31,773 nt of DNA, taken from positions 1 through 31,773 of the forward strand of contig JBDKKY010000009.1 in assembly GCA_039795875.1 (NCBI GenBank), given 5' to 3'. Shown here in pieces: positions 9,965-28,435 of the stretch. A program made the translations under genes and the position numbers. Position 1 is the first letter of the stretch. Each line of letters begins with the position of its first letter. The DNA comes from Candidatus Parcubacteria bacterium (GTDB lineage: Bacteria; Patescibacteriota; Minisyncoccia; Phycocordibacterales; CAIZLB01). The notes under the pieces are model-generated. The model was not told the origin of the DNA, did no database searches, and worked only from the letters and a program-made list of their open reading frames with translations.

Positions 9965-10062
9965 ATATCCATTATAGCCTGAACCGTAAGGTATCAAAAT
10001 AAAAACCCCTGGAGACTGCTTTGCTAAGGCAGCTCCAGGAGCGGGTTTTTGAGCGGTGAAAC

Positions 10063-10620
10063 TCAGCGAGAATGTCGGGCGCGCACGGCTTTGAGCCATT
10101 TGAGGGGCTCGAGAAGCCAGCGTTCTTTCCGGCTCATCGGATGTGAGGATCGCACGATGTGGACTTTCCACTTCGGCGGACAATACTTTCTGACATAGGC
10201 GGCGATCCGCTTCTGGTGCCAGTAGCTGTCAGAAGATCCGATATACACATCGAGGTGGGTTGTTGGATCCGCACCATAATTGATGGCAAGGGCGAACCCT
10301 TGCCGGATCTCGTTCCCGGTGCTCCAACAGCACGGGTTCGCTACTGAGTTCTCCTCGGTCCATTCAGGAAACGTACGGAGCCACTCAATGAATTGGGTGG
10401 ACAGCGCACGCATCCGGGCAGGAACAGGAGTGCTGGGACTTTCGCGGGTGTAGCCGGCGGTAGCGACGACCAATACGTGCTCAGGCAGTACGGCTGGGGA
10501 TATGTTAGCCACCGTGTCCATATGGCGCATGATTGCGCCATCGGCCATTCCCAGTCGATCTATGTCTCCATAGGCCAAGGAAATGATGAGAGAGGTGAAT
10601 ATGGGTTCTGGCGTGCTCAA
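10063..10620 (-). CDS. hypothetical protein, GC-rich (compositionally foreign)
   Basis: The 185-aa ORF starts at a TTG at 10620; in-frame ATGs lie at 10548, 10530 and 10521. GC content is markedly higher than in the flanking genes. I recognise no family. Confidence 0.4.
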   Translation of the reverse strand: MSTPEPIFTSLIISLAYGDIDRLGMADGAIMRHMDTVANISPAVLPEHVLVVATAGYTRESPSTPVPARMRALSTQFIEWLRTFPEWTEENSVANPCCWSTGNEIRQGFALAINYGADPTTHLDVYIGSSDSYWHQKRIAAYVRKYCPPKWKVHIVRSSHPMSRKERWLLEPLKWLKAVRARHSR

Positions 10621-10767
10621 GGTGTCAGGTGTTCTGGTAGAGGTTGAAGTTTCGGGTGAATTTCAGTACAACACTATTATACCATATCTGTCAAGTAAAA
10701 GCAAGGGTGGATAGAGTATAATAAAAGTGTCGGAAGTTTATCAATTAATTCATTCAAAACAAGCACA

Positions 10768-11160
10768 ATGCTCAACAAAAGAGTCAAAACAACAAATATG
10801 GAATTAACAGATGCCATATCTGATTATGTTCATAAAAAAGTTGATGTTCTAGAAAAATTCATTGAATCTGATGTGCAAGCTTTGGCAGAGATCGAGATCG
10901 GTAAAACTACACATCATCACCACAAAGGAGATGTGTTTAAAGCCGAGATTAGTCTGACTATGGGTAAAGATAATTTCCAAACTAGTGTGGTTGAGTCGGA
11001 CCTCTATACCGCTATTGATAAGATGAAAGAGAGTATTGTTCAAGAAGTAACACGTTCAAAACGGAAAAAACAGCATCTATTCCGCAGAGGTCGTCAGAAG
11101 ATTAAAAATATATTGCGAGGATTTACTAAAGGCAAGAAAGAGCCAGTAGAGACAGAATAA
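10768..11160 (+). CDS. hpf: ribosome hibernation promoting factor / RaiA (S30AE family)
   Basis: The N-terminal NMELTDAISDYVHKKVDVLEKF, the middle FKAEISL and SDLYTAIDKM, and the basic C-terminal tail match the HPF/YfiA pattern. Confidence 0.8.
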   Translation: MLNKRVKTTNMELTDAISDYVHKKVDVLEKFIESDVQALAEIEIGKTTHHHHKGDVFKAEISLTMGKDNFQTSVVESDLYTAIDKMKESIVQEVTRSKRKKQHLFRRGRQKIKNILRGFTKGKKEPVETE

Positions 11161-11180
11161 GGGACGTCAACATAGATAAA

Positions 11181-11237
11181 AAACCCTCCGCTTCCGTCCA
11201 AGCTGGACTCCAGCGAGACGAAGGAGAGTTTTTTTAT
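11181..11237. terminator. putative bidirectional terminator between the convergent hpf and VOC genes
   Basis: An imperfect hairpin (ccctccgcttccgtc ... gagacgaaggagag with inner gtcca-agc-tggac) is flanked by an A-run upstream and TTTTTTT downstream. Confidence 0.3.
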
Positions 11238-11243
11238 GGTCAA

Positions 11244-11603
11244 CTACTTTGCTTTTCTCTTGTGGATAATCACCCGACTTCCGTCTGGATCTAGCACTAC
11301 TGCCATCTGGCAAGTTGGATACGTTTGTGGTTCCAGCTGGAATGTTACGTCATGTTCTTTAAGTTTGGCAACTGCGGCCTCAAAGTCTTCCATTTCAAAT
11401 GCGATACATGCGCCTTCGGGAGAGGGTTTATACATGTCTGGAGCACAGCCGAGAGAGAATGTGCTATCGCCAATCGTATATTCAGTCCACTGATCACTAT
11501 TAAATTCTGTTCCTGGGACGAGCCCGAGTATTCCTTCATAGAAGGCCTTGGCTTTTTTCATATCGTTGACAGCGTATATTGTGAATGCAAATTCTTTAAT
11601 CAT
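11244..11603 (-). CDS. VOC-family (glyoxalase/bleomycin-resistance fold) protein
   Basis: The 119-aa protein shows the MIKEFAFTIYAVNDMKKAKAFYEGILGL and VVLDPDGSRVII beta-alpha-beta-beta-beta module pattern of the VOC family. Confidence 0.65.
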   Translation of the reverse strand: MIKEFAFTIYAVNDMKKAKAFYEGILGLVPGTEFNSDQWTEYTIGDSTFSLGCAPDMYKPSPEGACIAFEMEDFEAAVAKLKEHDVTFQLEPQTYPTCQMAVVLDPDGSRVIIHKRKAK

Positions 11604-11615
11604 TAGTGTGATAAA

Positions 11616-12005
11616 TTAATTGGCTTTTAATGCGTCTGTGACGGCTTTGACAATATCTTGAGGCTCGGTTGTGGCCTTGATCATAAATTGGGCATTGAGA
11701 GAGCCCGCGCGATCTCGATCTTTCCTTTCGTCGGTATTGCTGACAACAATAACTTTAATGCCTTTGGTTCGATCGTCCTTGCGCAATTGTTCCAAAGCGT
11801 CTAATCCGTTCATCCCCGGCAAAAAGATATCTAGGAGAAGGATGTCTGGTAGATTGGTTTTTAATGCATCGAGCAGTGCCTCGGCAGTTGTGAATAAAGA
11901 GGTCTGAATGCCAGCCTCGGCCACTTGGTCTTTTAAAATTCTGCCTAAAAAAGTGTCGTCCTCAACGATAAATACCTTTTTTGAAGTGATGTTTGTGTCA
12001 GTCAT
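11616..12005 (-). CDS. stand-alone response-regulator receiver (CheY-like)
   Basis: It carries KKVFIVEDD, a phospho-acceptor Asp in ILLLDIFLPGMNG, and a conserved T/K (VIVVSN, K). It has no output domain. I prefer the ATG at 12005 because the GTG at 12041 overlaps the -35 box of the divergent promoter. Confidence 0.75.
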   Translation of the reverse strand: MTDTNITSKKVFIVEDDTFLGRILKDQVAEAGIQTSLFTTAEALLDALKTNLPDILLLDIFLPGMNGLDALEQLRKDDRTKGIKVIVVSNTDERKDRDRAGSLNAQFMIKATTEPQDIVKAVTDALKAN

Positions 12006-12030
12006 ATCCACAGTATACACCAGCTCTTCC

Positions 12031-12059
12031 TTGTAGACCACCCATAACTCTAATATAAT
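12031..12059 (+). promoter_or_regulatory. sigma70-like promoter TTGTAG-17-TATAAT for the Met-rich membrane protein / HK operon
   Basis: The -35 box ttgtag lies at 12031-12036, then a 17-nt spacer, then tataat at 12054-12059. That is about 38 nt upstream of the ATG at 12097. Confidence 0.45.
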
Positions 12060-12096
12060 AAAGCTATATCAATAATAACTAACTTTATATAAATTT

Positions 12097-12882
12097 ATGG
12101 ATACAAATATGAACATGGAAGGTCATGATATGATGATGGGTGACAACATGATGACTGGTCATGATATGGGGGGGATGGGTGACATGGGCATGATGATGGA
12201 TATGGGACCTGTGGTCTTCGGAGGCCTTCATTTAGTTAATCTACTTTTAATGGTTTCAGGAGTATTCTATCTTATCTGCGCGCTTTCTATCTTTAAAACT
12301 TGGAGACGAGAAAAGAACGAACTATTGGGAGCCTTGTTTGCCTTTCTATGTTATCAAGCTGTAAGTATGTTTTTCATGGGAGCGGGTATGCAGACTATGA
12401 ATATGTTGTATAGCAACATTGCTGCACTAGCCGTATTTGTTGGATCAGCGTACATGTTGAAATTTCCTTTAAGTAAATTGGCCCAGAAAACTCGAAATGC
12501 TCTGTTTTTGGTCATATTGGTTATTTTGTTGGCACTGTTTGTTTGGTTCGTCCAAACTCCAGAGAGAGAAACTCAATTGATGCACTTCGTGATGTGGTAT
12601 GACTTAGTGGTCAACGGAATTGTTGTAGGAGGATCAATCATTATGTTTGGAATACGAGCAACCGAAGCGGCGTTTAAAAAGAAGGCTATCGGAGGGGGAG
12701 CCGGTGTTGTTAGTTGTTGTGTGGTTGCAACAGGGGCGATGATTGGCGGGGCATTCCTATTTGGAACAATCTTCTCATTTTTGGCTCCAATTATCATCTT
12801 GAGTACATTACGACAGAAAGCTTTGAGCGGTGGGTCGAATACAACATCTGCACCAGCCGCCAATCCAGCACCAACGATGTAG
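12097..12882 (+). CDS. Met/His-rich polytopic membrane protein (putative Cu/Ag-binding accessory sensor)
   Basis: The N-terminal 40 aa are MDTNMNMEGHDMMMGDNMMTGHDMGGMGDMGMMMDMG: 16 Met, 2 His and Asp-rich, resembling Ctr/CopB/CusF 'Mets motifs'. About 6 TM helices follow. Its stop lies 3 nt before the HK start. Confidence 0.55.
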   Translation: MDTNMNMEGHDMMMGDNMMTGHDMGGMGDMGMMMDMGPVVFGGLHLVNLLLMVSGVFYLICALSIFKTWRREKNELLGALFAFLCYQAVSMFFMGAGMQTMNMLYSNIAALAVFVGSAYMLKFPLSKLAQKTRNALFLVILVILLALFVWFVQTPERETQLMHFVMWYDLVVNGIVVGGSIIMFGIRATEAAFKKKAIGGGAGVVSCCVVATGAMIGGAFLFGTIFSFLAPIIILSTLRQKALSGGSNTTSAPAANPAPTM

Positions 12883-12885
12883 TAT

Positions 12886-13830
12886 ATGAATAATACACTA
12901 GAAAGAATCCTTGCGTATGTGCTCGGAGCACTTATAGGAGCGGGCTGCGGCTCGCTTTTGGTGTCTTTAAATATGCACATTATAGATCCTGCGTACCAGA
13001 CAGTGACTGTTAGAATCATGCCACTCATCGGCTTGTTGATTTCTATGGTCATCGTTGAGTATCGGTATGAACGGTCTTTAAAAAAGAATCAGGCAATTCG
13101 AGATGAGACAGTGGCGCTGATTACTCATGAGATGAGGACGAGTCTAACCTCAACCGGTTGGGCAATAGGTTTAGTCTTGAAAAAGTATGGTAACAGTATT
13201 GAGGAATCTGATAAACAGTTGCTAAGTGGTGTGGTTGATTCTATACACACAACGGTTATGCACTCGGTTAATCTGCTTGATGTGAGTCTGCTTGATATCG
13301 GAAAATTGTCGATCTCACTCGAATGGACAAAATTGTCTAAGGTGACAGAGATGATGCATGAAATCTTGGAAAAATATACTATGGGCGCGGAAAGTCATGG
13401 TATTCATTTGACAAAGAATGTCAATATTGATGAAGAAAAAATGGCTGAAGTTGATATGTTGCGCTTGCGAATTATCTTAGAGAATCTTTTGGAAAATGCT
13501 ATCCAGTATACTGCTGAAGGTGCAGATAAAAAGGTGGCTGTCAGCGTGTTCAACGATGAGCACGAGTTGCATGTACAAGTGGCCGATAACGGTATTGGTA
13601 TCCCAACAGGGGAAAGAGAGAAGATTTTTGGTGAATTTTATCGTGCTAGCAATGCTCGCAAGAAACTGAGTACTGGAAGCGGTATCGGTTTGTATACCTC
13701 GGCCAAATACATCAAAGCTCATAGAGGAGAGATCCGTTTTGAGTCTACTGAGGGTAAAGGAACTACCTTTTTCATCACCATTCCTCTCAAAACCGAGGCT
13801 GATGTTGGAGGATTCTTGAAGAAGATATAA
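12886..13830 (+). CDS. sensor histidine kinase (intramembrane-sensing type)
   Basis: Two N-terminal TM helices are joined by a short loop of about 10 aa. The H-box is ITHEMRTSLTS. The N/G1/F/G2 boxes are ENLLENAIQYT, VADNGIGIP, FGEFYRA and GSGIGLY, forming a HATPase_c domain. Confidence 0.8.
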   Translation: MNNTLERILAYVLGALIGAGCGSLLVSLNMHIIDPAYQTVTVRIMPLIGLLISMVIVEYRYERSLKKNQAIRDETVALITHEMRTSLTSTGWAIGLVLKKYGNSIEESDKQLLSGVVDSIHTTVMHSVNLLDVSLLDIGKLSISLEWTKLSKVTEMMHEILEKYTMGAESHGIHLTKNVNIDEEKMAEVDMLRLRIILENLLENAIQYTAEGADKKVAVSVFNDEHELHVQVADNGIGIPTGEREKIFGEFYRASNARKKLSTGSGIGLYTSAKYIKAHRGEIRFESTEGKGTTFFITIPLKTEADVGGFLKKI

Positions 13831-13849
13831 GCATGCTATACTCGAGTGC

Positions 13850-15640
13850 ATGAATAAACTCAAAACAGCGTGGGATTTTTCCCATATGTATAAGGGGATT
13901 AAGGATCCTAAAATCGAGAAGGATGTGCAAGGGTATGTGCGAGCTTACAAGACTTTTACGGCCAAATATAAAGATAAGAAGTTTGTAAACAGCGTTTCGG
14001 GACTGGCACAGGCGATGAAGGATTGGAACACTCTCCATGAGACCACGTCTCCACGTGCGTTGTGGTATCTGTATTTGGAAGGTCGACGGGATACTGGAAA
14101 CACAGAACTCCAAGCTGAAACCGCTCGGTTGGATGATATGTTTAAGAAAGGGTATAAGGAAATCATCTTTTTCAGCTCGGCTGTTTCAAATATAGAGTCT
14201 AAAAAGCAAGCGGTGTTTTTGAAAGATAAAAGATTGGCACCGTATAGATATGCCTTAAAAGTCATGTTTGCTAAAGGCAAGTACAAATTGTCAGACGCTG
14301 AGGAGAGAATAATGACAGAGAAGGCCACTGTCGCGCACGGTGCCTGGGTTAAGGCCATGACCAAATATCAAAACGCTCAAAAGGTTAAGAAAGGTAAAAA
14401 GTGGATTTCTCTTTCTGAAGCATTGAGCTCTAAGGCCGAACTGCCGCGAGCTGAACGAAGAGCGCTGCACAAAACTGTCATGGAAAAATACAAAGAGATC
14501 AGCTTCCTAGCCGAGGCAGAATTGAATGCGATAGTTCGGAATAGAATAATTGATTGTGACATCAGAGGGTATAAGACTCCTTATGAACCAACGGTCTTAT
14601 CATATCAGAATGACCTAAAGAGTATTGAAAGCCTGGTTGCTGCTGTGACAGCATCAAACCCAATAGCCCACAAATTTTATTCCTTAAAAGCTAAGATTTT
14701 AAATAAAGTAGAAAAAACTGGCGAAAAAAAGATCACCATGGCAGAGTTCGCCACAACTGTTTCTACAACAGAAGGCCAAAGTAAAAATGTTTCCTTTGAA
14801 GAGGCTGCCAAGATCGTCAAAGGTGCACTGGCAGAAGCTAGTCCAGAATTTGGTGACATGTTCCAAACATATTTAGATAATGCTCAACTTGATGTGTTTC
14901 CAAAACAAGGTAAACAGATCGGTGCTTTCTGTTGGGGTATGATAGGGTCAGATCGGACTCGTGTTTTTTTGAATTACTCTGGACGACTGAAAGACATTTC
15001 TACTATTGCTCATGAGATGGGGCACGCTATTCATTGGGATCTAGCCAAAGTACAACCAGCAATGTATCAAGATTTTACGATCTCAGTGGCGGAAGTGGCG
15101 AGTACATTTTTTGAAAATATTTTATTTGATAAATTATTAGAAACAGCTACTGCGGATGAGAAGCGTGATCTGATGTTAAATGACATTCAGGGACGGATTA
15201 ACACCATTCACGCCCAAATTGCCTATTTTCAATTTGAAAAGAAATTGCATGCGGCCGTTCGGGAGCAGGGGTATGTCTCAAAAGAGAATATTGCTAAGAT
15301 GTTTGCAGATTGTCGTCGATCCTATATCGGTGATGCGATTGAGATTACCGAAGACGATGGATATGGATATGTGTATATTTCCCATTTTCGTAGATTCTTT
15401 TATGTGTATTCATATGCGTATGGTCAATTGATTGCCGATGCATTGTATACAGAATATAAGAAAGATAAAAGATTTATTGAAAAAGTAAAAAAGTTTTTGC
15501 GAGCAGGAGGTAGTATGTCGCCAGCTGACATTTTCAAGAGCATTGGTATTGATACGACTAAGCCGGATTTCTTTAAAAAAGGTTTGAAAAAATTGAGTGA
15601 CGATCTAGAGAAGGTGAGTAAGATGGTCCGCCTTCGCTAA
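13850..15640 (+). CDS. pepF: oligoendopeptidase F (M3B zinc metallopeptidase)
   Basis: The 596-aa protein has HEXXH zinc motif IAHEMGHAIH at about residue 387 plus a downstream Glu. Size and layout are typical of PepF. Confidence 0.75.
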   Translation: MNKLKTAWDFSHMYKGIKDPKIEKDVQGYVRAYKTFTAKYKDKKFVNSVSGLAQAMKDWNTLHETTSPRALWYLYLEGRRDTGNTELQAETARLDDMFKKGYKEIIFFSSAVSNIESKKQAVFLKDKRLAPYRYALKVMFAKGKYKLSDAEERIMTEKATVAHGAWVKAMTKYQNAQKVKKGKKWISLSEALSSKAELPRAERRALHKTVMEKYKEISFLAEAELNAIVRNRIIDCDIRGYKTPYEPTVLSYQNDLKSIESLVAAVTASNPIAHKFYSLKAKILNKVEKTGEKKITMAEFATTVSTTEGQSKNVSFEEAAKIVKGALAEASPEFGDMFQTYLDNAQLDVFPKQGKQIGAFCWGMIGSDRTRVFLNYSGRLKDISTIAHEMGHAIHWDLAKVQPAMYQDFTISVAEVASTFFENILFDKLLETATADEKRDLMLNDIQGRINTIHAQIAYFQFEKKLHAAVREQGYVSKENIAKMFADCRRSYIGDAIEITEDDGYGYVYISHFRRFFYVYSYAYGQLIADALYTEYKKDKRFIEKVKKFLRAGGSMSPADIFKSIGIDTTKPDFFKKGLKKLSDDLEKVSKMVRLR

Positions 15641-16158
15641 AGCTTCGACAGGATGAAATAAATTGGATTTCCAGCGTCATCATCGTCATCACCACCGGGG
15701 CCAGCACCGAACAGAGCACCACCCAGACCGCTGAGTAGCATTTCCACGAGGGACACACCGGCGCTTCCGCGATCGCCACCGAAGAGTTCTCCGAGATCTC
15801 CGAGGGGGACCGCGACGAAGCCGGGAGGAGCTGCGCTAGGACCGTTGGCGGGCGCGGCGACCAGTAATCCGTCACCTTTGATCAGGACGCCGGTCGAGGA
15901 GTTCTTGAACTCATCGGGCAGATCGGCCAGGATCATGAGGTTCATAAACCTGTTGCCAGCACTTTCGATCGCGCGGATTTCATTCAGCTCGCGCTGAAGT
16001 GCCGCCTGCGTCGTGTTGTAGTCGCGCCGGGTCTCGCTGGTGTGGCGGGTGAAGGCACGATGTTCACGTTGATTGCGTTGCATCTGTCTGACGATCACGT
16101 TACCGGCCTCGCGCATTGTCTCCAGGAAGAAAAAGGTTTGCCGGTTGTTCGTGCTCAT
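15637..16158 (-). CDS. hypothetical protein, GC-rich; coiled-coil N-terminus, Gly/Ala/Pro-rich C-terminus with poly-Asp tail
   Basis: An ATG at 16158 is preceded by AAGGTGG 8 nt upstream; the track ORF starts at a GTG at 16170. GC is about 58 %. The protein is MSTNNRQTFFFLETMREAG...GPGGDDDDDAGNPIYFILSKL. Confidence 0.45.
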   Translation of the reverse strand: MSTNNRQTFFFLETMREAGNVIVRQMQRNQREHRAFTRHTSETRRDYNTTQAALQRELNEIRAIESAGNRFMNLMILADLPDEFKNSSTGVLIKGDGLLVAAPANGPSAAPPGFVAVPLGDLGELFGGDRGSAGVSLVEMLLSGLGGALFGAGPGGDDDDDAGNPIYFILSKL

Positions 16159-16510
16159 CTGGTCAACCACCTTGTCATTGTGGCCAATAGGTGGTGTGCC
16201 GGGGAGTTGGGCCTTGGGGTCGTACTTGCGGAATAAGGCATTGAGGTTTTTTCATGGGTATGGGTAGTCTATGGGTGTTTGGTTGTGAGCTGCGTATCTC
16301 CCTATGGAGAGAACGAGACGGAAATGTTCGTTACAGCAGACAATTGTCCAGATGAACAACTAGCTGCCGTAACGAACCAGACCTTGTAAAAGTGCGATAG
16401 TGATAATCATAGTATAACTTCCTTATTTTGTCAAATGCCCAATGAATACAGGTTAAATCCCCTAGGAAAAAGGTTTTTTTGATGCCCTACAAACTGTTAT
16501 ACTTATCACC

Positions 16511-16783: not shown

Positions 16784-16790
16784 ATAAAAA

Positions 16791-16837
16791 CGCTGCAGGA
16801 CCTCGGGTGAGGTCCCACAACGTGGGGGTTTGCAGCG
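16791..16837 (-). terminator. structured terminator for the GC-rich gene 16849..17526
   Basis: The outer stem cgctgca/tgcagcg encloses the hairpin ggacc-tcgggtga-ggtcc. On the minus strand it is followed by TTTTTATTTATTTAAA, directly downstream of the stop at 16849. Confidence 0.55.
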
Positions 16838-16848: not shown

Positions 16849-17526
16849 TTACTGCGCGGTGTTTGGGGTGGGAGGGTTGGCGGGTTCAGGAGTGAGGGGT
16901 TCCACCGGTCTAGGGCTGGTCTCTTTGAGGGCTTTGTTCGCGTACTCCAGTACCTGATCGTCGGTCAAGGTAGAAGTGTCGTGGCTGTAGCTGTAGTCAC
17001 TGGAATAAGAGTCGTACTCACCTTTTCCAGCATACACTGTTTCGGTGCGCCAGGGTGAGTATTTGAGTTGGCCATTGTGCACGACCTTTATCAAGTGGGT
17101 TGTTCCCGGCGGAATGTCAAACGTGATGATATCGGAAGTATGTACGACGTACTGCATACCACCAGCATCACTGACGATGACTTGGGGCACAGGCCATTCG
17201 CGGCCGGAAGCAGGGTGGTTGTAATTGCCGGTCATGACAATTCTGACGACCTGCCCCTCTTGAAGGGCGATGATCTGACTCTCAGCTCTCTTCAGGTCAG
17301 CCGTTCGGCTGCTCAGCCATTCGGGTTTCAGAACAATGACGCCGAGGAAAATGGTCAACAGCCACTGTGCTAAGTTGCTGAGCACGAAGAGGGTCGAAGG
17401 TTGAGTGGTGGTGGTATTTTGAGGTGGGTTCACGGTAGTAGTGTGTAGGAGTTGTTTGATTGTGAAGGCCCTATATCTAAGGGTTGGGTATACTATACGT
17501 ATATTACACCACAATGTCAAGTACAC
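16849..17526 (-). CDS. hypothetical membrane-anchored protein, GC-rich, Pro-rich C-terminal tail
   Basis: The track ORF starts at a GTG at 17526, but a consensus promoter overlaps that point, so the true start may be the GTG at 17433 (VNPPQNTTTT...). It has a TM anchor (LFVLSNLAQWLLTIFLGVIVL) and a C-terminal PRPVEPLTPEPANPPTPNTAQ tail. Confidence 0.5.
   Translation of the reverse strand: MYLTLWCNIRIVYPTLRYRAFTIKQLLHTTTVNPPQNTTTTQPSTLFVLSNLAQWLLTIFLGVIVLKPEWLSSRTADLKRAESQIIALQEGQVVRIVMTGNYNHPASGREWPVPQVIVSDAGGMQYVVHTSDIITFDIPPGTTHLIKVVHNGQLKYSPWRTETVYAGKGEYDSYSSDYSYSHDTSTLTDDQVLEYANKALKETSPRPVEPLTPEPANPPTPNTAQ
17492..17520 (-). promoter_or_regulatory. sigma70 consensus promoter TTGACA-17-TATAGT (minus strand)
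   Basis: The plus-strand tgtcaa at 17515-17520 is TTGACA on the minus strand. A 17-nt spacer follows, then TATAGT (plus-strand actata at 17492-17497). Confidence 0.45.
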
Positions 17527-17559: not shown

Positions 17560-17928
17560 ATGCTCATCACAACTATAGTATTATTCGTCATTGTCCTTAT
17601 GTGTATTCCAACCTTCAAGCGGCTGTATGTGCCGTACGCCAAGGATAATCCAAACAAGCTTTGGTTTAAGAAAAAATTATATGGCTGGGGTTGGACACCG
17701 GTAACTACTCAAGGCTGGACCGTGACCTGGATTTATGTTGCTTTAGTGTTTACATTTGCCTTTACTATTGACGAACAATCTCCATCCAAAGAGGTGTGGT
17801 TTACATTTATTCTACCTGTTGTTCTTTTAACTATCGCATTTGTCCGCATCGCATACACCAAAGGCGAGAAACCAAAATGGCAATGGGGTCCGGAGAAAAA
17901 GCTCGAAGATAAACCAGAAGTAAAATAA
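17560..17928 (+). CDS. small membrane protein (2-3 TM), possibly leaderless
   Basis: An extended -10 box (TGcTATAAT at 17545-17553) ends 7 nt before the ATG at 17560. The protein is MLITTIVLFVIVLMCIP...KLYGWGWTPVTTQGWTVTW.... The upstream part of track ORF 17452.. overlaps the divergent promoter. Confidence 0.5.
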   Translation: MLITTIVLFVIVLMCIPTFKRLYVPYAKDNPNKLWFKKKLYGWGWTPVTTQGWTVTWIYVALVFTFAFTIDEQSPSKEVWFTFILPVVLLTIAFVRIAYTKGEKPKWQWGPEKKLEDKPEVK

Positions 17929-17975
17929 AAAAAACACTCCACGACCGCAGGGGCACGGTCGGGAGGTTGGAGTCT

Positions 17976-18767
17976 TCAAGGGGTTAGCTTAACGGTCGAT
18001 CGAGGCCGCTTGCATATGCCCGGACGGCGCTTCCTCTTCATCCTCGGTTGATCAAGAGGTGTCCAAGGCGTACGACGAGTGGGATTCATGACGGTGCAGG
18101 CCATGTCTTCCCAATGCATTGCATTGAAGATTTTGAATGCGATATCTTTGATAAGCTTGACGCCGGTATCGGACACCACACTGTATGCACGGGTTTTCCC
18201 ATCAACGGAGTTGCACATCACTCGCATCAGTCGATGACGATCGTCATACGGAGTATGCTGTATTAGCACGGCGAACGCCGAACTGATGTGAGTCATAATC
18301 CAGTCAGGGACTTTGTCGAACCCGTACGACGGATCATAAATGATCCGTCGTAAGAAGACCAGGAATTTCCGCCGAGCGTCTCTCATCGTACTAGGCGTCA
18401 CGTCGCTCATGTATGATGGTGCTGTGATGCAACCGACAATCAGTGCCCCGATAAAGTTCAGGTGATTGTCCATGCCGCGCGGCCCACGATGGTCATCAAT
18501 CCAATTTGCGACTCGCTTGAAGGGACGAGGCTCAAGTTCGGCGGCGCAGTACACGCAGAGCCCTTGAACAACTCTGAGCTGCTCCTCCCAAGTGTTGCGA
18601 GGATTCAGGAGAACTCCTCGCAGCACCTTGGGCACGACTTGAGCTGGGTTAGGGTTGAACATGAGTTCCTCCCAGCAATTTCCCAGTTCACGGTCGTGAA
18701 AGGGGATATGCAGGGCGAGGAGGCGGCGTTGTAATGTAGTGTGTTTTGGTTCGTTTGGGGTATTCAT
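17976..18767 (-). CDS. hypothetical protein, GC-rich, with strongly basic NLS-like C-terminus
   Basis: An ATG at 18767 (MNTPNEPKH...) is preceded by AAAAGG. The coding sequence is GC-rich; the upstream part of the track ORF is AT-rich and holds the hairpin cttgctt-tttc-aagcaag. The C-terminus reads PRMKRKRRPGICKRPRSTVK. Confidence 0.5.
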   Translation of the reverse strand: MNTPNEPKHTTLQRRLLALHIPFHDRELGNCWEELMFNPNPAQVVPKVLRGVLLNPRNTWEEQLRVVQGLCVYCAAELEPRPFKRVANWIDDHRGPRGMDNHLNFIGALIVGCITAPSYMSDVTPSTMRDARRKFLVFLRRIIYDPSYGFDKVPDWIMTHISSAFAVLIQHTPYDDRHRLMRVMCNSVDGKTRAYSVVSDTGVKLIKDIAFKIFNAMHWEDMACTVMNPTRRTPWTPLDQPRMKRKRRPGICKRPRSTVKLTP

Positions 18768-18900
18768 AACCTTTTCAGGTAGTCTTGCTTTTTCAAGCAA
18801 GGGGTTGACGGATTTCTCCGTATGCCATACGTTATGGCACGGTTCAACGATATAACTCTTATTATATAAAGTCAAACTAAATATTTGCCATACTATACTC

Positions 18901-19575: not shown

Positions 19576-19968
19576 TCATCCACGGAGATAATCCATTTCG
19601 ACTTTCAAGACGGGATAAGCGGCCAGTCCGGGCTCGTACTGAACGGTCACTCGCTGGTAACCGAGGTCTTCACCAGTGTATACATCGCCACCGATGTAGG
19701 GTTCAGTGGGGTGCTCCACTAGGTGGAGAATAGCTCGCCAGCCGAGGCTCTGAAAGTATTCCTCGAGTAAGCGGAGAATGTGGCAAAGAGAGATGATCTC
19801 TTTGCATTCGATGCGCACGACCTCAAAGAGACAGTCGTGAGGGCTCTGATGTTGAAATGGGGCTGGGATGTGCAGTACTCTTAGTCCTCGGGTTCCTAGC
19901 CTGCTGAGCAGGGCGGGTCCTAGTGGTTGGTCTTCTTCAGTGTGCGGTTTTAGGTTAATTTCGGGCAT
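19576..19968 (-). CDS. hypothetical protein, GC-rich
   Basis: The 130-aa ORF has an ATG start and GC above 55 %. I recognise no family. Confidence 0.4.
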   Translation of the reverse strand: MPEINLKPHTEEDQPLGPALLSRLGTRGLRVLHIPAPFQHQSPHDCLFEVVRIECKEIISLCHILRLLEEYFQSLGWRAILHLVEHPTEPYIGGDVYTGEDLGYQRVTVQYEPGLAAYPVLKVEMDYLRG

Positions 19969-21721: not shown

Positions 21722-22408
21722 CTAGGCCATGTTGGTGCGGTATTTCTCCAGGATGATTTCCGCTGCTCCTTCGCGAGGAAGAAGTGATGTATCAATCGGG
21801 AAGGCCTCGGGGTGTTGTCTGGCTGGATTGTGCTCGCGGTGGGTGTCTCGGTGATCACGGTCGACGATGCTGTTGAAAATAGCTGTCTTGCTAAACGTGG
21901 TAACGCCGGTGGACTGGAGGTAAGCGAAGTGCCGAGCTGCTTTGACATGCACATCAGTGAAGAGATAGAAACGGTACTTGGTGTTATACACCCAGCATAC
22001 ATCGCGTCCATCTGTCACCAGCGGTCCTTCCTCGCGTTTACGGAGTTGAAATGTCCGGAGAGCTTCGCGCACAGGTAAGTGAACGGCAATCTGAGAAGCA
22101 TGAGCTGCTCCAGCACCAGTGCGGATGCCTTCAGTTTCATCTATTCCATGCAGAATGATGTGGTCGTCGTTTTCTTCAACGCGGAGAGCGAGAGCGATGT
22201 CCCGCAATGCATTGACGTCTTCCAGTACATTCTGACGATGGCCCAGCAATGCCACAGCGCGAAAAAGGGCACCGCTGTCGCAGGTCCGGAATCCAAGTGC
22301 TTTAGCAACCAGTCGCATAGCGGTCGAGGTGCCAGTCCGTGCCAATCCGTCGATTGCGATGACGGGGTGAGTCAGATCTTGAGGGGGAGGTTCAATAAGT
22401 AATCCCAT
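21722..22408 (-). CDS. cmk: cytidylate kinase, GC-rich copy
   Basis: It has the P-loop-like IAIDGLARTGTSTAMRLVAKALGF...DSGALFRAVAL and the DGRD motif (LVTDGRDVCWV) of CMP kinase. GC content is far above the neighbouring genes. Confidence 0.75.
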   Translation of the reverse strand: MGLLIEPPPQDLTHPVIAIDGLARTGTSTAMRLVAKALGFRTCDSGALFRAVALLGHRQNVLEDVNALRDIALALRVEENDDHIILHGIDETEGIRTGAGAAHASQIAVHLPVREALRTFQLRKREEGPLVTDGRDVCWVYNTKYRFYLFTDVHVKAARHFAYLQSTGVTTFSKTAIFNSIVDRDHRDTHREHNPARQHPEAFPIDTSLLPREGAAEIILEKYRTNMA

Positions 22409-23178: not shown

Positions 23179-23444
23179 AAATAAATCCGCCAGAAAAATG
23201 TAATACCAAAAGTTCGACAAAACCCTTATACCACAAGGACATTACAGTAATATTAACACTAATGTGAATAGTGTATAACGGGGTTGCTAACCTGGCTCAA
23301 CAGGAACATACTGAAGATGTAGCGTGGATAACCCTCTTGTATCTGTATATGAGAAAGTCCTTTTCTAAAAGAGTTTGGCTACAAACTCGAGATACTAATT
23401 TATTCATTAGTACTTTATTAATTCTAAAAAATTAAAATAACTGT

Positions 23445-24077: not shown

Positions 24078-24176
24078 TCTGTGTATTCCTCATACTCCGT
24101 CATAAATTGATCAAAGAAAAAACCACCGAATGATTGCGGTGGTTTTTTCGTGTATGAATTATGATAGGATTGGACT

Positions 24177-24704: not shown

Positions 24705-25103
24705 CTACCGATTGATGTAGGTAATTGTCAATTGTAGACATGTTGCAAATGTGACCCAGAGTAGATAAGGAATTTGTATATACGTAATCCACCGTGCGTG
24801 AGAGAAAATTGCAATCATGGCCCAGACCAAAGTCCCAAGAACTAGGATGATATCAAGTGCTGCTAAACCGTTACTTTTTAATCCAAACTGTATCGGAGTG
24901 AAGATGAGATTGAAAACAATATTTAAAATAAAAGGTAACGCCACAATAAATGGTATCTGTTTGTGAAATGCCATCCAAAATACTTTTCCAAAAGAAATAG
25001 TAATCAAGACATATAAACATGTCCACACTGGTCCAAATAACCATGAAGGTGGTGCCCATGTTGGTTTGGCTAATTTTGAATACCAGGCGTAGTTTTGATT
25101 CAT
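24705..25103 (-). CDS. tspO: TspO/MBR tryptophan-rich sensory protein
   Basis: An ATG at 25103 gives MNQNYAWYSKLAKPTWAPPSWLFGPVWTCLYVL, the TspO N-terminal signature, and 5 TM helices. The upstream extension in the track ORF 24705..25154 is unlikely to be coding. Confidence 0.7.
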   Translation of the reverse strand: MNQNYAWYSKLAKPTWAPPSWLFGPVWTCLYVLITISFGKVFWMAFHKQIPFIVALPFILNIVFNLIFTPIQFGLKSNGLAALDIILVLGTLVWAMIAIFSHARWITYIQIPYLLWVTFATCLQLTITYINR

Positions 25104-25480
25104 GGATATAGTATATCTTATATCTATTGCAATAATAATAGGAACACATGTCAATAAACACGTAGATCTTTATCCCAACTATGCCAAATAAAAAACCTTC
25201 CGAAGAAGGGGTGAGACTCGTTGCAGGTAGGTTCTAAGTTTTGCGTGTCTACTGACAAAATGTTGGGGGAGTGGAAGCAGCCCCGAGAGACGCATGCCGG
25301 GAGAAAGGCGATCCCGATCAAACTTGTACTTGTGCGTGCGATAGACCGTTTGAGAGTACGGTCGACTTGGTTACTTCTAACCTGGACTGTCCAGTAGAAT
25401 TGGCCGGGCACTGCCTGCAACGAGCTCGAAAATTAGTATACATATGAGGGATGTGGTTGTCTAGAGGTCCGATTTTTCAT

Positions 25481-25489
25481 GATATAATC
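25481..25489 (+). promoter_or_regulatory. extended -10 promoter element TGaTATAAT for the TrmB-like gene (near-leaderless)
   Basis: TGATATAAT ends 8 nt before the ATG at 25498. Confidence 0.35.
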
Positions 25490-25497
25490 TCTGTACT

Positions 25498-26268
25498 ATG
25501 AGACACTTCGCTATAGACGAATATTTAAAACATCTAGGCTTCAGTGAAAAAGAAACAGAGGTCTACGAATACTTGCTTGAAGCTGGTATGGCTAGTCCAT
25601 TGGCTATCAGCAAAGGTATAAAAATAAAACGTTCAACTGTATATGCCGCTCTTGATGAATTGGCCAATAAAGGATTGGTGCGCGAGATCAAACATGAGCA
25701 CAAAGATGTATTCATCGCTGAAGATCCGGAGCGCATCAAGATTCTTTTGGAAGAAGCAAAAAATAAAACAGAAGAAATGTCGAGTGTTTTCAGTGAGTCC
25801 ATCCCACGTATCCGGGCGTTCATGAAAAAACCGGGTGGCGCACCAACATTAAAATTTTATCAAGGTAGGGATGCAATTCAGGCATCGATGATAGAGTTTG
25901 TTCACAATCCAGGATTAAAAGAATCTTTGGACTACGGTGTGTTTTCTTTGGATGTAGTACATCAGATGTTTGGCAATAAAGGTTGGGTCTCGTATGTCAC
26001 CGAACGTATAAAAGAGAACGATGTCTACAAAGTTATTTACACTTCAGAAGAAGGAGAGTTGCCCGACTCACATTTTAAAGAATCTTTGAAGATAGATCAG
26101 TCAAAGTATCCACTTTCTTGTGATATTGGTATTTATAAAGAAGAAGTTCGTATTCATATGATGGGGGATAATGCATATGGAATCTGCATTGAGTCAAAAC
26201 AATTGGCGGAGACTCTAGGATCGATTATTCGTCTAGTAATGGACAACCAAAGACAAAATCAAAAATAA
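25498..26268 (+). CDS. TrmB-family HTH transcriptional regulator
   Basis: The N-terminal winged HTH reads GFSEKETEVYEYLLEAGMASPLAISKGIKIKRSTVYAALDELANKGLV. A C-terminal effector domain of TrmB size follows. Confidence 0.6.
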   Translation: MRHFAIDEYLKHLGFSEKETEVYEYLLEAGMASPLAISKGIKIKRSTVYAALDELANKGLVREIKHEHKDVFIAEDPERIKILLEEAKNKTEEMSSVFSESIPRIRAFMKKPGGAPTLKFYQGRDAIQASMIEFVHNPGLKESLDYGVFSLDVVHQMFGNKGWVSYVTERIKENDVYKVIYTSEEGELPDSHFKESLKIDQSKYPLSCDIGIYKEEVRIHMMGDNAYGICIESKQLAETLGSIIRLVMDNQRQNQK

Positions 26269-26309
26269 ATTCTAAATAAAAATAGAATAAAGATTCTATG
26301 AAGTTGGTC

Positions 26310-26338
26310 AAAATACCCTTATAAACAAAGGGTATTTT
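26310..26338 (+). terminator. Rho-independent terminator (aaaataccctt-ataaaca-aagggtatttt)
   Basis: A perfect 11-bp stem and 7-nt loop lie 42 nt after the stop of the TrmB-like gene. Confidence 0.6.
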
Positions 26339-26398
26339 ACGTATACGCCTTTTGTATATTTTGAATTGTAATCTTATATTTTTTTCTGAAAAAATATT

Positions 26399-26433
26399 TT
26401 GACATATTGTACTTTGTTGCAATACTAATCTCA
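26399..26433 (+). promoter_or_regulatory. candidate sigma70 promoter TTGACA-16-AATACT upstream of the SPFH gene
   Basis: A consensus -35 hexamer sits in AT-rich DNA about 135 nt upstream of the GC-rich gene. Confidence 0.35.
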
Positions 26434-26567
26434 GAACGAACTTTGACAGCGAGTGGTATGTAAGACAACTGAACAGAATTCGCGACAGCAATGCATCCGG
26501 ATACGTAGATGGATGCAACGCTGTTTCGAATCATCGACTCAGTAAACCCAAATACAACACGCACTAT

Positions 26568-27875
26568 ATGACTAAATCTAGAATCGTTCTGGCCCTTATC
26601 CTGATCGGGATAATTGCCTTCATCGAGTTCGTTATACTCACTCCTACCGATCAACTCATCAGCCCCAAGATGGGGATCAATCAGGTCAACGGTGATGATC
26701 TTGACGGCTTGAAGCTGCGAAGCTTGCAAGAAGCCAAGAACACCGTCACGTTGATCTGTGGTACGCTCTACGGGCTTGTCGCCCTGTGGCTGTTCAAGCC
26801 GCTGATTTTGCGGCTGTGGAAATCTGGCAACAAAGCACCAGTCACCAATCTGATTCTGATTGGTTTGGCTTCGACCACGATGGTCAGCTGTATGAAGCCG
26901 TACGACAAACCTGAGTACGTCGAGATCAACAACAATGAAACCGCTTTCGTGTTTCCGCTTGAGGGTGACACGAAAGAGCAGGCCAAGTTCCAGAGCAAGG
27001 AACACCTGCAGCAAGCCAAAGTGGCTGCTAAACGTATTCAGATCACGCACCGGTGGAATCAAACCGCCCGTGGCGAAAGCAACGGCGAGTGGATACCTTC
27101 CATTCGTGTGATCAAAGTTGACCGCTCGCCAGTGACTCGTAACTGGCAAGCTGCGGCCGGTGGTGCCCAAACCAAAGGACAAGAGAAAGATACGGCCATC
27201 TGGGTCGAGTCTGCCGACAGCGTCGGCTTCTCCATGGGCTTTGCCTGTACCGCGTATGTGACGGAAGAAGATTCCGCTACGTTTCTGTATTGGTATCCGA
27301 GTGGTAGCCTGGCTATCGTGATGGACACCGAGATCAGGGCTCGCATACAGCAAGGTGCTGCCGAGGTCTCTGCTAAGTACCCGCTGGATATTCTTCGCGG
27401 GAAAAAGCAGGAGATCATAGACAGTATTCGTACTGATGTGACGGTGTTCTTCAAAGAGCGCGGTATCACGATCACCACTGTTGGTATGTTCGGCGGTATG
27501 ACGTACGAAAACACGAAGATACAGGAGGCCATAGACTCCGTCTTCATTGCTCAGCAGGAAAAAGAAAAAGCCAAGGCGGCTTTCGAGGCTCAGGAAAAGC
27601 TGAACGCTACTGTCACGCTGGCGGCGCAAGCTCAAGCTGACAAAAAACGCATCGAGGCTGAAGGTGAAGCCAAAGCCATCGATGCGGTGCAAAAAGCGTT
27701 GCAACAAGCTGGACCTCTGTACATTCAGCGCGAGTTCATTACGCGCTGGGACGGCAAGTTCCCTGAGTACTACCTGGGAGGCGGTGCTGGTGGCCCCTCT
27801 CTGCTCCTCGGAGTTCCTGCTCCGACACCAGGCAAGGTGGAACACTCCACTGAGCCTACCCCTACTAAGAACTGA
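26568..27875 (+). CDS. SPFH/band-7 (HflK/C-, flotillin-like) membrane protein, GC-rich
   Basis: It has an N-terminal TM helix and an SPFH-like core. A Glu/Ala/Lys coiled-coil follows (QQEKEKAKAAFEAQEKLNATVTLAAQAQADKKRIEAEGEAKAI), as in HflK/HflC. The Gly/Pro-rich C-terminus is GC-rich. Confidence 0.6.
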   Translation: MTKSRIVLALILIGIIAFIEFVILTPTDQLISPKMGINQVNGDDLDGLKLRSLQEAKNTVTLICGTLYGLVALWLFKPLILRLWKSGNKAPVTNLILIGLASTTMVSCMKPYDKPEYVEINNNETAFVFPLEGDTKEQAKFQSKEHLQQAKVAAKRIQITHRWNQTARGESNGEWIPSIRVIKVDRSPVTRNWQAAAGGAQTKGQEKDTAIWVESADSVGFSMGFACTAYVTEEDSATFLYWYPSGSLAIVMDTEIRARIQQGAAEVSAKYPLDILRGKKQEIIDSIRTDVTVFFKERGITITTVGMFGGMTYENTKIQEAIDSVFIAQQEKEKAKAAFEAQEKLNATVTLAAQAQADKKRIEAEGEAKAIDAVQKALQQAGPLYIQREFITRWDGKFPEYYLGGGAGGPSLLLGVPAPTPGKVEHSTEPTPTKN

Positions 27876-27911
27876 GGTTCTCTGAGGGAGATGCATTGAG
27901 TGCATCATCGG

Positions 27912-27946
27912 GCGTTCGGTCAGCAATGACCGGACGCTTTTTTATT
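27912..27946 (+). terminator. Rho-independent terminator with GCAA tetraloop
   Basis: The 11-bp stem gcgttcggtca / tgaccggacgc (one G-U pair) and GCAA loop are followed by TTTTTTATTT. Confidence 0.7.
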
Positions 27947-27958
27947 TCCGTAAACATA

Positions 27959-28435
27959 CTATTCTCCATCAAATGCCTTCTGCAATGCCGATACATCAAT
28001 CTTTACCATCTTCATCATCGCCTGCATCACTCGGGCTGATTGTTCAGGTGTGCCCTTACTCATCAGCTCAGGCAATTGTTGTGGTACAACTTGCCATGAC
28101 AGGCCGAATTTATCTTTTAACCAACCACATTGTGATTCTTGTCCACCGTCGGCTAAAAGTTTTTCCCAATAATAATCAACCTCAGTTTGGTCTTTGCAAT
28201 CGACCATAAAAGAGATAGATTCGTTAAATTTGAACATCGGGCCGGCATTCATAGCTGTGAACTTTGATCCGTCAAGTTCGAAAGAAACAATTTGTACTGT
28301 TTGTTTTTCATCAGGACCAGTATTTTCCATTTCCTCTTGTCCTAGGATTTTGGAATTGGGAAAAATAGAAGTATATAGCTTTGCTGCCTCTAGTGCCTGC
28401 GTGTCGTACCAAAGGAAAGGGGTTACTTTTGTCAT
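27959..28435 (-). CDS. PhnB-like / 3-demethylubiquinone-9 3-methyltransferase-domain (VOC-fold) protein
   Basis: MTKVTPFLWYDTQALEAAKLYTSIFPNSKI ... DCKDQTEVDYYWEKL ... CGWLKDKFGLSWQV is the typical PF06983 pattern. Confidence 0.7.
   Translation of the reverse strand: MTKVTPFLWYDTQALEAAKLYTSIFPNSKILGQEEMENTGPDEKQTVQIVSFELDGSKFTAMNAGPMFKFNESISFMVDCKDQTEVDYYWEKLLADGGQESQCGWLKDKFGLSWQVVPQQLPELMSKGTPEQSARVMQAMMKMVKIDVSALQKAFDGE

Follow-up and report, generated by a model that had tools for sequence, protein, structure and literature searches.

The stretch of DNA considered here is a whole contig of 31,773 bp (JBDKKY010000009.1, hereafter the window; locus tags RJB39_386-402) from a metagenome-assembled genome of Candidatus Parcubacteria, and the features in question are seven GC-rich genes, here called islands I1 to I7, each of which stands alone among the AT-rich genes of the surrounding backbone. 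The window begins at its left end with mraY, ftsW and murG-like genes and has an overall GC content of 0.431. By exact-sequence look-up, the 90%-identity clusters of all tested window proteins contain calls from this contig alone. The initial annotation, made without database searches, described GC-rich genes scattered one by one through an AT-rich backbone, with abrupt boundaries, and this description is borne out. A 300-nt sliding GC profile combined with a two-state hidden Markov model (HMM) resolves exactly seven islands of 429-1301 nt (GC 0.54-0.60) between backbone segments with a GC content of 0.36-0.43 (Table 1). Each of them coincides with one of the open reading frames (ORFs) listed by the initial annotation to within about 50-110 nt, the listed I3 ORF overshooting its segment by 112 nt. 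At the level of genes, the islands have a GC content of 0.52-0.58 (z 4.1-6.2) against 0.405±0.029 in 29 backbone genes, and at third codon positions (GC3) the values are 0.53-0.66 and 0.364±0.063, respectively (Mann-Whitney p = 1.2e-7), so that codon usage is clearly not uniform between the two gene classes. The islands thus have the atypical composition of horizontally acquired islets, most plainly in third-position C (C3, 0.36 vs 0.16). The minus-strand bias noted earlier is also real (six of seven islands vs 8 of 28 backbone genes, Fisher p = 0.0099), and the signals that had been named (the promoter-like site of I3, the AAGGTGG before the ATG at 16158, and the hairpins following I3 and I7) were all found again. 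Structured RNA was considered as a source of the GC peaks and rejected: the window has no Rfam match at the gathering threshold or at E ≤ 1, neither it nor its relatives contain tRNAs, and an ORF spans every island.

Table 1. Positions of the seven islands, the signals read around them and a small C-rich unit (window coordinates; promoter, leader and terminator entries are predictions from sequence)
Feature	Position	Strand	GC	GC3	HMM segment (GC)	Remarks
I1 terminator-like hairpin and T-run	10003..10052	-				downstream of I1
I1	10063..10620	-	0.565	0.64	10006-10643 (0.566)	no family match
I1 promoter-like site	10715..10744	-				TTGATA-18-TATACT; 10/12 matches in consensus scan
I2	15637..16158	-	0.584	0.66	15671-16231 (0.602)	convergent with M3 peptidase gene
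I2 promoter and leader region	16159..16434	-				leader ~240 nt; AAGGTGG is the only Shine-Dalgarno sequence among the islands
I2 promoter	16434-16406	-				TTGACA-17-TATGAT; 11/12 matches in scan
I3 intrinsic-terminator-like hairpin	16790..16823	-				15 pairs, followed by T-run
I3	16849..17433	-	0.538	0.63	16791-17414 (0.556)	ORF open to 17526
I3 promoter-like site	17492..17520	-				TTGACA-17-TATAGT; 11/12, best match in region
Terminator common to I4 and a convergent 122-aa gene	17925..17968	-				~30 nt identical to positions 904-944 of related contig L017
I4	17976..18806	-			17935-18728 (0.545)	ORF; probable start 18767-18806
I5	19576..19968	-	0.532	0.55	19519-19947 (0.550)	130 aa; no family match; C3 0.39
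I6	21722..22408	-			21662-22390 (0.550)	divergent cytidylate-kinase-family protein
Small C-rich unit	25196..25463	-				promoter-like TAGACA-17-TATACT, ~230 nt, terminator; just upstream of TspO gene
I7 promoter-like site	26399..26426	+				TTGACA-16-AATACT with TG
I7	26568..27875	+			26637-27937 (0.539)	SPFH/Band-7 membrane protein, phage-associated family; window lineage only
I7 terminator-like hairpin and T-run	27910..27939	+				

Could the alternation be an artefact? The initial annotation had raised an assembly or binning chimera as an alternative, in which an AT-rich contig would have had reads of a GC-rich organism joined into it; the abrupt compositional junctions would fit such an origin, as would the break of one Logan contig within I3 (16982-16995). 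However, a chimera would require 14 junctions, all of them precisely at gene boundaries, and a mosaic within one contig cannot be produced by binning. The Logan contigs of run SRR35181295 match the window with 100% identity at 7290-16995 and 16982-29446, so that a second assembler gives the same sequence across 13 of the 14 junctions. The same alternation of AT-rich backbone and GC-rich islands, in the same slots, is found in related contigs from SRR30276816, SRR30276809, ERR10802336, GCA_020050275.1 and GCA_964424465.1, and orthologous junctions are seen again in contigs of at least four other samples. Since the contig is reproduced by a second assembler and its island slots are also filled by GC-rich genes in relatives that were sampled independently, the window is not a chimera, an explanation that for practical purposes can be dismissed.

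The GC excess of the islands is mainly a matter of a C-rich, A-poor synonymous dialect on the sense strand, regardless of which DNA strand encodes the gene. All seven islands have a C3 of 0.32-0.43 against 0.16 in the backbone, while G3 rises only from 0.20 to 0.24. At four-fold degenerate sites, C makes up 0.28-0.46 in islands and 0.08-0.23 in the backbone, and A 0.05-0.28 and 0.33-0.43, respectively, on both DNA strands and in three clades. NNC is used over NNT at a frequency of 0.52-0.75 in the islands, a preference that corresponds to odds ratios of about 2.6-8 for Phe, Tyr, Asn, His, Asp, Cys and Ile; two-fold codons ending in A or G barely shift. The amino acid composition is tilted modestly toward codons that start with C (Arg, Pro, His and Gln are up, Lys and Phe down). 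Two general processes were examined as sources of the excess and rejected. Replication-strand skew does not account for it, since minus-strand genes of the backbone reach a four-fold C content of only 0.23 compared to 0.38 in the islands. GC-biased gene conversion is a symmetric process and does not predict a sense-strand C excess on either DNA strand.

A search with the DUF4230 protein gave a graded series of relatives, whose fetched contigs are referred to by L-numbers. (Earlier scans of genomes and metagenomes for synteny were set aside; the relatives that they returned were just 55-58% identical in the M3 peptidase and showed little synteny.) Backbone gene order is conserved across the fetched loci, and GC-rich genes lie between matching AT-rich neighbors on L017, L021, L022, L023 and L024. 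On L021, GC-rich minus-strand genes in the corresponding slots are homologous to I1 (50% identity, L021 413-913), I2 (34% over the N-terminal 100 aa, 6771-7598), I3 (30-36%, 7875-8759) and I6, the cytidylate kinase-like (cmk-like) gene (36%), and homologues of I4 lie beside the same neighbors as in the window on L024 and L017 (48-50%). Between the window and these relatives, island proteins are 30-50% and backbone proteins 66-89% identical; between L021 and L024 the values are 90% for the cmk-like protein and 94-96% for the backbone, and between L017 and L024, I4 is 83% identical. For the window and L021 taken by themselves, the islands compared have 35-50% identity and the backbone 80-89%. 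The divergence of the islands thus scales with the distance between backbones.

The outgroup-like contigs L026 and L028 keep the order of the backbone, but in these the M3 peptidase gene abuts DUF4230 and the SET gene abuts PG_binding, and no 300-nt stretch reaches a GC content of 0.50 in the 15-20 kb covered. Because the slots of these relatives are compact and free of islands, the islands are insertions, and because four-fold sites are saturated between orthologues, the insertions predate a deep split: I1, I2, I3, I4 and the cmk-like gene were inserted before the lineage of the window separated from L021, L024 and L017. I5 and I7, on the other hand, have no orthologues in the relatives examined. 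The distribution is accordingly patchy, with all islands absent from L026 and L028, I5 and I7 confined to the window, and I4 absent from L021. The initial annotation's picture of single genes inserted into a native backbone therefore stands in part, supported by the island-free outgroup with its unchanged gene order and by the lineage-specific I5 and I7. Accessory status or fast evolution is by itself insufficient to make a gene GC-rich, since the HisPhos gene, which the outgroup lacks as well and whose product in the window shares only 50% identity with that of L021, is AT-rich.

Were the islands then acquired recently? The initial annotation had proposed many independent, recent acquisitions of single genes from one or more high-GC donors, as yet unameliorated, with the cytidylate kinase gene a fresh xenologue. 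Atypical composition, abrupt boundaries and the absence of islands from L026 and L028 would agree with such a history, as would the lineage-specific I5 and I7, the latter belonging to a family borne by phages, and transfers of individual genes have been reported as common among Patescibacteria (PMC12455944). Yet for five of the seven islands, homologues occupy the same slots of relatives, with identity at four-fold sites of 0.32-0.34 against 0.27 by chance, which leaves neither "recent" nor "independent" supported for these. The high-GC donor fares no better: none was found, and the enrichment is specific to C on the sense strand instead of a symmetric shift in GC. For I4, an exhaustive search of 1.84e9 representative proteins returned no homologue outside the clade and one non-self homologue in all, P0093 (49% identity, E 1.6e-70), which belongs to a sister lineage and is encoded on L017, where the orthologue of the same AT-rich neighbor lies beside it. 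For the cmk-like protein, nothing outside the clade exceeded 37% identity in a word-indexed search, so that the donor check at the protein level, suggested at the outset, failed to reveal a source. No relatives of I1-I5 or the cmk-like gene were found in IMG/VR, in scans that for I1, I2, I3, I5 and cmk detect close relatives only. Nor do phylogenetic relationships point to an outside donor in the case of I7, which is 46-59% identical to its nearest relatives and unlike them in composition, these being AT-rich at third positions. All seven islands share one C-rich, A-poor dialect, unlike that of L019, the contig with the best cmk match and the only GC-rich one found to carry a related cmk; L019 was rejected as a donor type because it uses Shine-Dalgarno sequences and has a GC3 of 0.8-0.9 with G3 ≥ C3. 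Hallmarks of mobility were also looked for, without finding integrases, tRNAs, flanking repeats, target-site duplications, attC-like sites or recombinase domains in island proteins. Recent acquisition is thus largely refuted for I1-I4 and the cmk-like gene by synteny and saturation, and as an account of the islands altogether it is improbable.

What do the islands encode? I1 has no match in Pfam, PHROG, NCBIfam, PADLOC or the PDB, and an AlphaFold model from its single sequence is of low confidence (pLDDT 52), too poor for a fold search. The 50%-identical homologue on L021 shows that it is a real gene, and alignment with that homologue suggests that the true start is probably the ATG at 10548, giving a protein of 161 aa. 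The warning in the initial annotation that gene callers might err in such a region is justified here: the exact sequence of I1 appears in no public gene call, and the caller used for Logan extended the neighboring membrane-protein gene into it (9404-10171; ORF 9404-10183, minus strand), where the true start lies at about 9964. That I1 is missing from all public annotations of the contig while its neighbor is over-extended is a caution for gene calling in general. I2, by its translation, is predicted to have a coiled-coil N-terminus and a Gly/Asp-rich tail. I3 is predicted to consist of one membrane segment, a beta-rich domain and a Ser/Thr/Pro-rich tail; its start is more likely at 17433 (the JGI call, 194 aa) than at 17526, which falls within its own promoter. 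I4 is predicted to be an all-alpha helical-repeat protein (AlphaFold2, pLDDT 64.5, pTM 0.63) with a conserved basic C-terminal motif, PRMKR[KT]RRPGICKRP, and is 50% identical to its homologue on L024. A sequence search of the PDB gave no match to I4, and a fold search of the PDB with its model gave only generic helical-repeat matches, none with E < 0.1. I5 has no homologue in the fetched relative loci and, as far as the examined relatives go, is restricted to the lineage of the window; its slot, between DUF4230 and a 207-aa gene, is reduced to about 10-100 nt in L021, L023 and L024. None of I1-I5 matches a family in Pfam, PHROGs, NCBIfam or PADLOC, and defence systems were discarded as a candidate function, there being no PADLOC match.

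I6 is a member of the cytidylate kinase family by its match to PF02224 (E 2.6e-32; 112.7 bits vs a cut-off of 26), and it aligns over the full domain with the DSG..[YF]R, GRD and RD..D..R regions kept. It differs from Cmk proper in scoring below the cut-off of the NCBIfam equivalog TIGR00017 (104.5 vs 135.55 bits), in being only 36% identical to its same-slot orthologues in L021 and L024, and in its P-loop (residues 21-29), which reads GLARTGTST, the Walker-A Gly and Lys of the expected GxxGxGK[GS]T pattern having been replaced. The orthologue in L021 and L024 retains the Lys (GLGRTGKGT), a typical Cmk having GPSASGKGT. I6 and these orthologues share the derived motifs GL[GA]RTG and TDVxVKAxRH, which support their being orthologous. 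Because the Walker-A Lys is lost and a related genome has an AT-rich PF13189-type kinase, I6 is probably an extra, diverging, paralogue-like copy instead of the housekeeping CMP kinase; where the initial annotation had left open whether a xenologous cmk replaces or supplements a core gene, "supplements" is the likelier. The AT-rich kinase in question was observed on L030, from a related Parcubacterium (18451-19047, minus strand), has an intact P-loop and may represent the family's native CMP kinase.

I7 has a marginal match to PF01145 (25.5 bits, gathering threshold 23.6), which is supported by phrog_200 (E 1.6e-20). Genes on seven IMG/VR contigs share 46-59% identity with it, and gp65 of Bacillus phage G shares 44%. 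The nearest homologues of I7, on AT-rich viral contigs, have the same GC content at first and second codon positions and the same amino acid composition, but a GC3 of 0.26-0.42 compared to 0.61 in I7, in which A makes up only 0.047 of four-fold sites. A 529-aa antisense ORF over I7 was rejected as a real gene: none of the seven homologues keeps the frame open, and the ORF is a by-product of codon usage. The GC-rich non-coding stretch that the initial annotation placed at 25195-25430 is less distinct than had been thought, with a peak GC of only 0.49 and no island called by the HMM, but it is bounded by promoter-like and terminator-like sites. The resulting unit (25196-25463) has a fold z of -2.8, a 14-bp stem closing its 5' and 3' ends, and a sense C/G ratio of 1.42; it has no Rfam match even at E ≤ 1 and is not conserved in the relatives. 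It may be a small RNA, or a mini-cassette of the island class with an ORF of about 39 codons.

The islands also differ from the backbone in their expression signals. In 15 of 28 backbone genes and in none of the seven islands, the start is preceded by a -10-like hexamer whose end lies 4-12 nt away (p = 0.012). At most backbone starts, a TATAAT-like box, often preceded by TG, is observed in place of a Shine-Dalgarno sequence (for example, at 13850, 16511, 17560, 24705-25103, 25498 and 27959-28435), and the same type of start is seen in L003-L005, L021 and L029; the pattern suggests that the organism largely uses leaderless mRNAs. The islands, in contrast, appear to be leadered, with leaders of about 40-240 nt, of which five of seven are C-rich and G-poor (C 0.31-0.43, G 0-0.14; I1 has C 0.43 and G 0.09, and the last 35 nt of the I3 leader C 0.43 and G 0.00). 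The leaders of I2 and I4 are balanced (C 0.26, G 0.26). Shine-Dalgarno sequences are absent from all islands except I2. The two best -35/-10 matches of the 19-kb region are the promoters of I3 and I2, and a terminator-like hairpin with a T-run follows six of the seven islands, the exception being I2, which has no terminator of its own in view and overlaps the end of the convergent M3 gene. The I2 leader (16159-16400, minus strand) contains an almost perfectly paired hairpin of about 25 bp (fold z = -3.3) and is partially conserved in L021 (69% nucleotide identity across 135 nt). The terminator shared by I4 and the 122-aa gene is 97% identical to its counterpart on L017 over 34 nt, and 93% over 41 nt, despite saturated four-fold sites in the coding sequence; no compensatory changes were observed in this hairpin, and its conservation exceeds what a plain terminator would need. 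Each island is thus predicted to be an autonomous transcription unit with a promoter, a leader, an ORF and usually a terminator, and the same grammar is found in the GC-rich genes of L003-L005, L008 and L021. A leader does not by itself imply C-richness, as the hibernation-factor gene is leadered and AT-rich, yet every C-rich gene is leadered.

Near-consensus promoters, terminators in six of seven islands, mostly G-poor and probably unstructured leaders and a strong preference for NNC over NNT would all be expected if the islands were highly expressed genes, in which C-ending codons had been favored by translational selection via tRNAs with GNN anticodons. However, ordinary translational selection is unlikely, since the enolase gene and eight ATP-synthase genes of the related locus L030 use backbone-like codons (GC3 0.34-0.44, C3 0.16-0.25). 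Selection on codons would also leave unexplained the shift in amino acids toward codons starting with C and the C-rich non-coding leaders, and the genes concerned are ORFans and a cytidylate kinase homologue with a broken P-loop. In bacteria of the candidate phyla radiation, moreover, translational selection is expected to be weak, given how codon bias is linked to growth rate and rRNA operon number. High expression is therefore a doubtful explanation, to be given little credence. (L030 also has about 700 nt with a GC content of 0.58 at 10724-11434, after DUF4230 and ahead of the ATP-synthase operon, in which the sole long ORF is implausibly rich in Gly and Arg.)

Why has the composition of the islands persisted? 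At four-fold sites under conserved residues, compared between the window and L021 or L017, the islands are identical at a frequency of 0.32-0.34 where 0.27 is expected for independent sites, at a four-fold GC content (GC4) of 0.56-0.62; in the backbone, the corresponding values are 0.377, 0.295 and 0.24-0.34. A simple resampling model calibrated on the backbone, with a retained fraction of about 0.34 per lineage, predicts that an island starting from an ancestral GC4 of 1.0 would by now be at most at 0.57 in the window and 0.50 in L021, and for an ancestral GC4 of 0.8 the observed values exceed the prediction by 3.7 standard errors (SE) in the window and 4.4 SE in L021. That the dialect survives saturating synonymous divergence leads us to infer that it is actively maintained, a conclusion with moderate support. 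In the close pair L021 and L024, identity at four-fold sites is alike in the cmk-like gene (0.566) and the backbone (0.585), so the synonymous rate is not elevated, and the fast divergence of the proteins is due to constraint that is weaker or diversifying. A GC-rich gene of 246 aa in a second clade, compared between L004 and L005, has a ratio of nonsynonymous to synonymous rates (dN/dS) of 0.13. Local hypermutation, including mutagenesis of the kind carried out by diversity-generating retroelements, was considered and rejected, the synonymous rate between L021 and L024 being equal to that of the backbone and no pair of template and variable repeats being found in 9000-29000.

The persistence could instead be passive. 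If the ancestor of the sub-clade had received the genes long ago from sources of very high GC content, and these genes had since decayed slowly and incompletely by neutral amelioration, in parallel in the descendants and with no selection involved, they would be insertions relative to the outgroup, as they are, and the GC3 of orthologues would be similar across lineages, as it is. Such decay does not sit well with island four-fold sites that are about as saturated as those of the backbone, with observed values that lie 2.4-4.4 SE above the neutral bound in L021, and above it in the window when the starting values are realistic, or with an excess that is specific to C while four-fold G is barely above the backbone, where symmetric decay from an ancestor about equally rich in G and C predicts otherwise. 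Younger islands (I5 with a GC3 of 0.55, I7 with 0.62) also cover the same range as older ones (0.53-0.66), and island GC3 is about 0.5-0.65 across clades in which that of the backbone is 0.20-0.37. Ancient transfer with neutral decay is unlikely on this evidence, although it has an appreciable chance of being correct.

The slots themselves are not static. On L021 (9694-9993), the I4 slot is observed to hold an AT-rich plus-strand Cdd1 gene, and on L024 (3-569) a GC-rich minus-strand homologue of I4; in the slot between TspO and a 3-demethylubiquinone-methyltransferase-like gene, the GC-rich occupant of the window is not the one seen in L021. On L004, a whole GC-rich cassette of 281 bp (5840-6120), consisting of promoter, leader, a 35-aa ORF and a terminator, lies between two adjacent genes and is precisely missing from L005 (7792-7793), where nucleotide identity is 94-95%, with no target-site duplication. 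In the same pair, a terminator-like hairpin of 44 nt was observed on either side of the GC-rich 246-aa gene, the two copies forming a direct repeat (L005 5434-5477 and 6332-6375; L004 3481-3524 and 4379-4422).

Such turnover might mean that the slots are hot-spots refilled from an external or extrachromosomal, GC-richer pool (an unsampled plasmid, phage or host) and that the resident copies are young. The exchange of I4 for Cdd1, the 281-bp indel and the differing occupants of the TspO slot can all be read in this way, as can the phage relatives of I7 and the fact that the cmk-like copies of the window and L021 are as far from one another as each is from outgroups. Against refilling, however, the divergence of the islands tracks that of the backbone, the cmk-like genes share derived motifs, and the flanks and terminator of I4 are orthologous. 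No member of such a pool was found for I4 in the exhaustive search, nor in IMG/VR for I1-I5 or cmk, and no recombinase genes or attachment-site-like repeats were found. Refilling of this kind is very improbable.

The explanation that remains favored, with a confidence slightly better than even, is that the islands are long-resident, fast-evolving accessory cassettes whose composition is actively maintained, and not recent high-GC imports. The window would then be a correctly assembled segment of the chromosome of a freshwater-type member of the Parcubacteria (candidate phyla radiation), in which an AT-rich backbone, syntenic across the family and mostly leaderless-looking, is interrupted by seven single-gene cassettes, and perhaps one mini-unit, that occupy slots between backbone genes and usually have the opposite orientation. 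The cassettes would have entered a compact ancestral backbone, at least five of them (I1-I4 and the cmk-like gene) before the split from L021, L024 and L017, and would have been inherited vertically in the same slots since then, their proteins diverging about 2-4 times faster than those of the backbone at an unchanged synonymous rate, while some slots would still turn over among close relatives. The C-enriched, A-depleted dialect would be held by selection or some other force that is specific to this class of genes and acts on the sense strand or mRNA, probably in connection with the way in which the cassettes are expressed (leadered, without Shine-Dalgarno sequences).

These statements differ in strength. 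The reality of the islands, their synteny, age, rates, dialect and signal architecture are shown by the data, whereas the active maintenance of the dialect and its probable link to the mode of expression are inferences. The strongest form of the argument, offered only tentatively, is that in a family of Parcubacteria two gene dialects reside together in one chromosome, a mostly leaderless, AT-rich backbone and insulated, leadered cassettes, mostly without Shine-Dalgarno sequences, that are kept C-rich and A-poor at synonymous sites, and to a large extent in their leaders, by a class-specific force outlasting saturation. One might speculate that this force lies in the partition of tRNAs between GNN and UNN anticodons, in Rho or another factor that reads C-rich, G-poor RNA, or in mRNA stability.

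Several points weigh against long residence under active maintenance. With an ancestral GC4 near 1.0, the value for the window would lie just 1.7 SE above the neutral bound, and the argument from persistence uses a simple substitution model, 146-214 four-fold sites and alignments of proteins that are 30-50% identical. The cmk-like copies of the window and L021 are 36% identical, as distant from each other as from outgroup cmk (33-38%), so that their orthology is not beyond doubt, a separate acquisition in the same slot being excluded by the shared motifs alone. I5 and I7 may be recent. The search for donors was exhaustive for I4 alone, was word-indexed for the cmk-like gene, and for I1, I2, I3 and I5 consisted of IMG/VR and family libraries. 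Promoters, leaders and leaderless status are consensus predictions, the codon comparison with highly expressed genes rests on L030, a lineage different from that of the window, and the mechanism is speculative.

Elsewhere in the window, an ORF of 1432 aa (4543-8841, plus strand) was observed to have an unusually high GC content at second codon positions (0.53). Within it, a repeat at 6951-7263 is about 82% identical to 7290-7602, and a Logan contig starts at 7290, just past the first copy.

Why does the origin of the composition matter? Atypical GC is routinely read as a sign of recent transfer or of contamination, with amelioration serving as a clock, and both readings would mislead in this group, where composition stays atypical at the resolution of single genes through saturating divergence. 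Filters for chimeras that are based on GC would falsely flag contigs of this kind. If composition is indeed tied to gene class, an atypical value would mark a class of regulation or expression and not a recent foreign origin, and the cassettes offer a case in which such a tie can be tested. As the fastest-evolving genes of the region, with the strongest promoter-like signals, they are also candidates for functions in host or phage interaction in an uncultured episymbiont lineage. No report of this two-composition pattern was found in the literature, nor any publication dealing with the source assemblies.

Several known systems nevertheless resemble it in part. Integron cassettes are likewise single-ORF units, mostly without a family match, each followed by a hairpin, and their presence varies among relatives. 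They are typically promoterless, whereas the units in the window have promoters of their own. The window units are moreover interspersed with backbone genes instead of forming an array, no integrase was found, and their 3' hairpins have no common sequence or attC-like consensus and are followed by T-runs, as in terminators. The hot-spots and class III genes of enterobacteria offer another parallel, as variable accessory genes between core genes, with deviant codon usage and turnover among strains. Classical genes of this kind usually have a higher AT content than the host and are interpreted as recent, and the hot-spots mostly hold several genes together with genes for mobility; the islands are C-richer, single and old, and lack mobility genes. 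Genomes dominated by leaderless mRNAs, such as those of Deinococcus deserti (PMC4007540), mycobacteria and haloarchaea, resemble the window in having many genes with a -10 element directly before the start and a leadered minority. To our knowledge, the leaderless and leadered classes have not been reported to differ in base composition in these organisms.

A further likeness is to the individually transferred genes and small islands described in Patescibacteria, which are also atypical accessory genes inserted in the streamlined genomes of the candidate phyla radiation (PMC12455944). In that work, most transfers were judged not to be recent and to have taken place mostly within the phylum, and old transfers were assumed to become undetectable through amelioration (PMC12455944). 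The units in the window differ in comprising a single gene with its own promoter and leader and, in six of seven cases, a terminator; in having no detectable donor; and in occupying conserved slots with a synonymous composition that has not converged on that of the host despite saturation. What remains appears to be an unusual but interpretable variant of the accessory islet: old, bound to its slot, autonomously expressed, fast-evolving and stable in composition.

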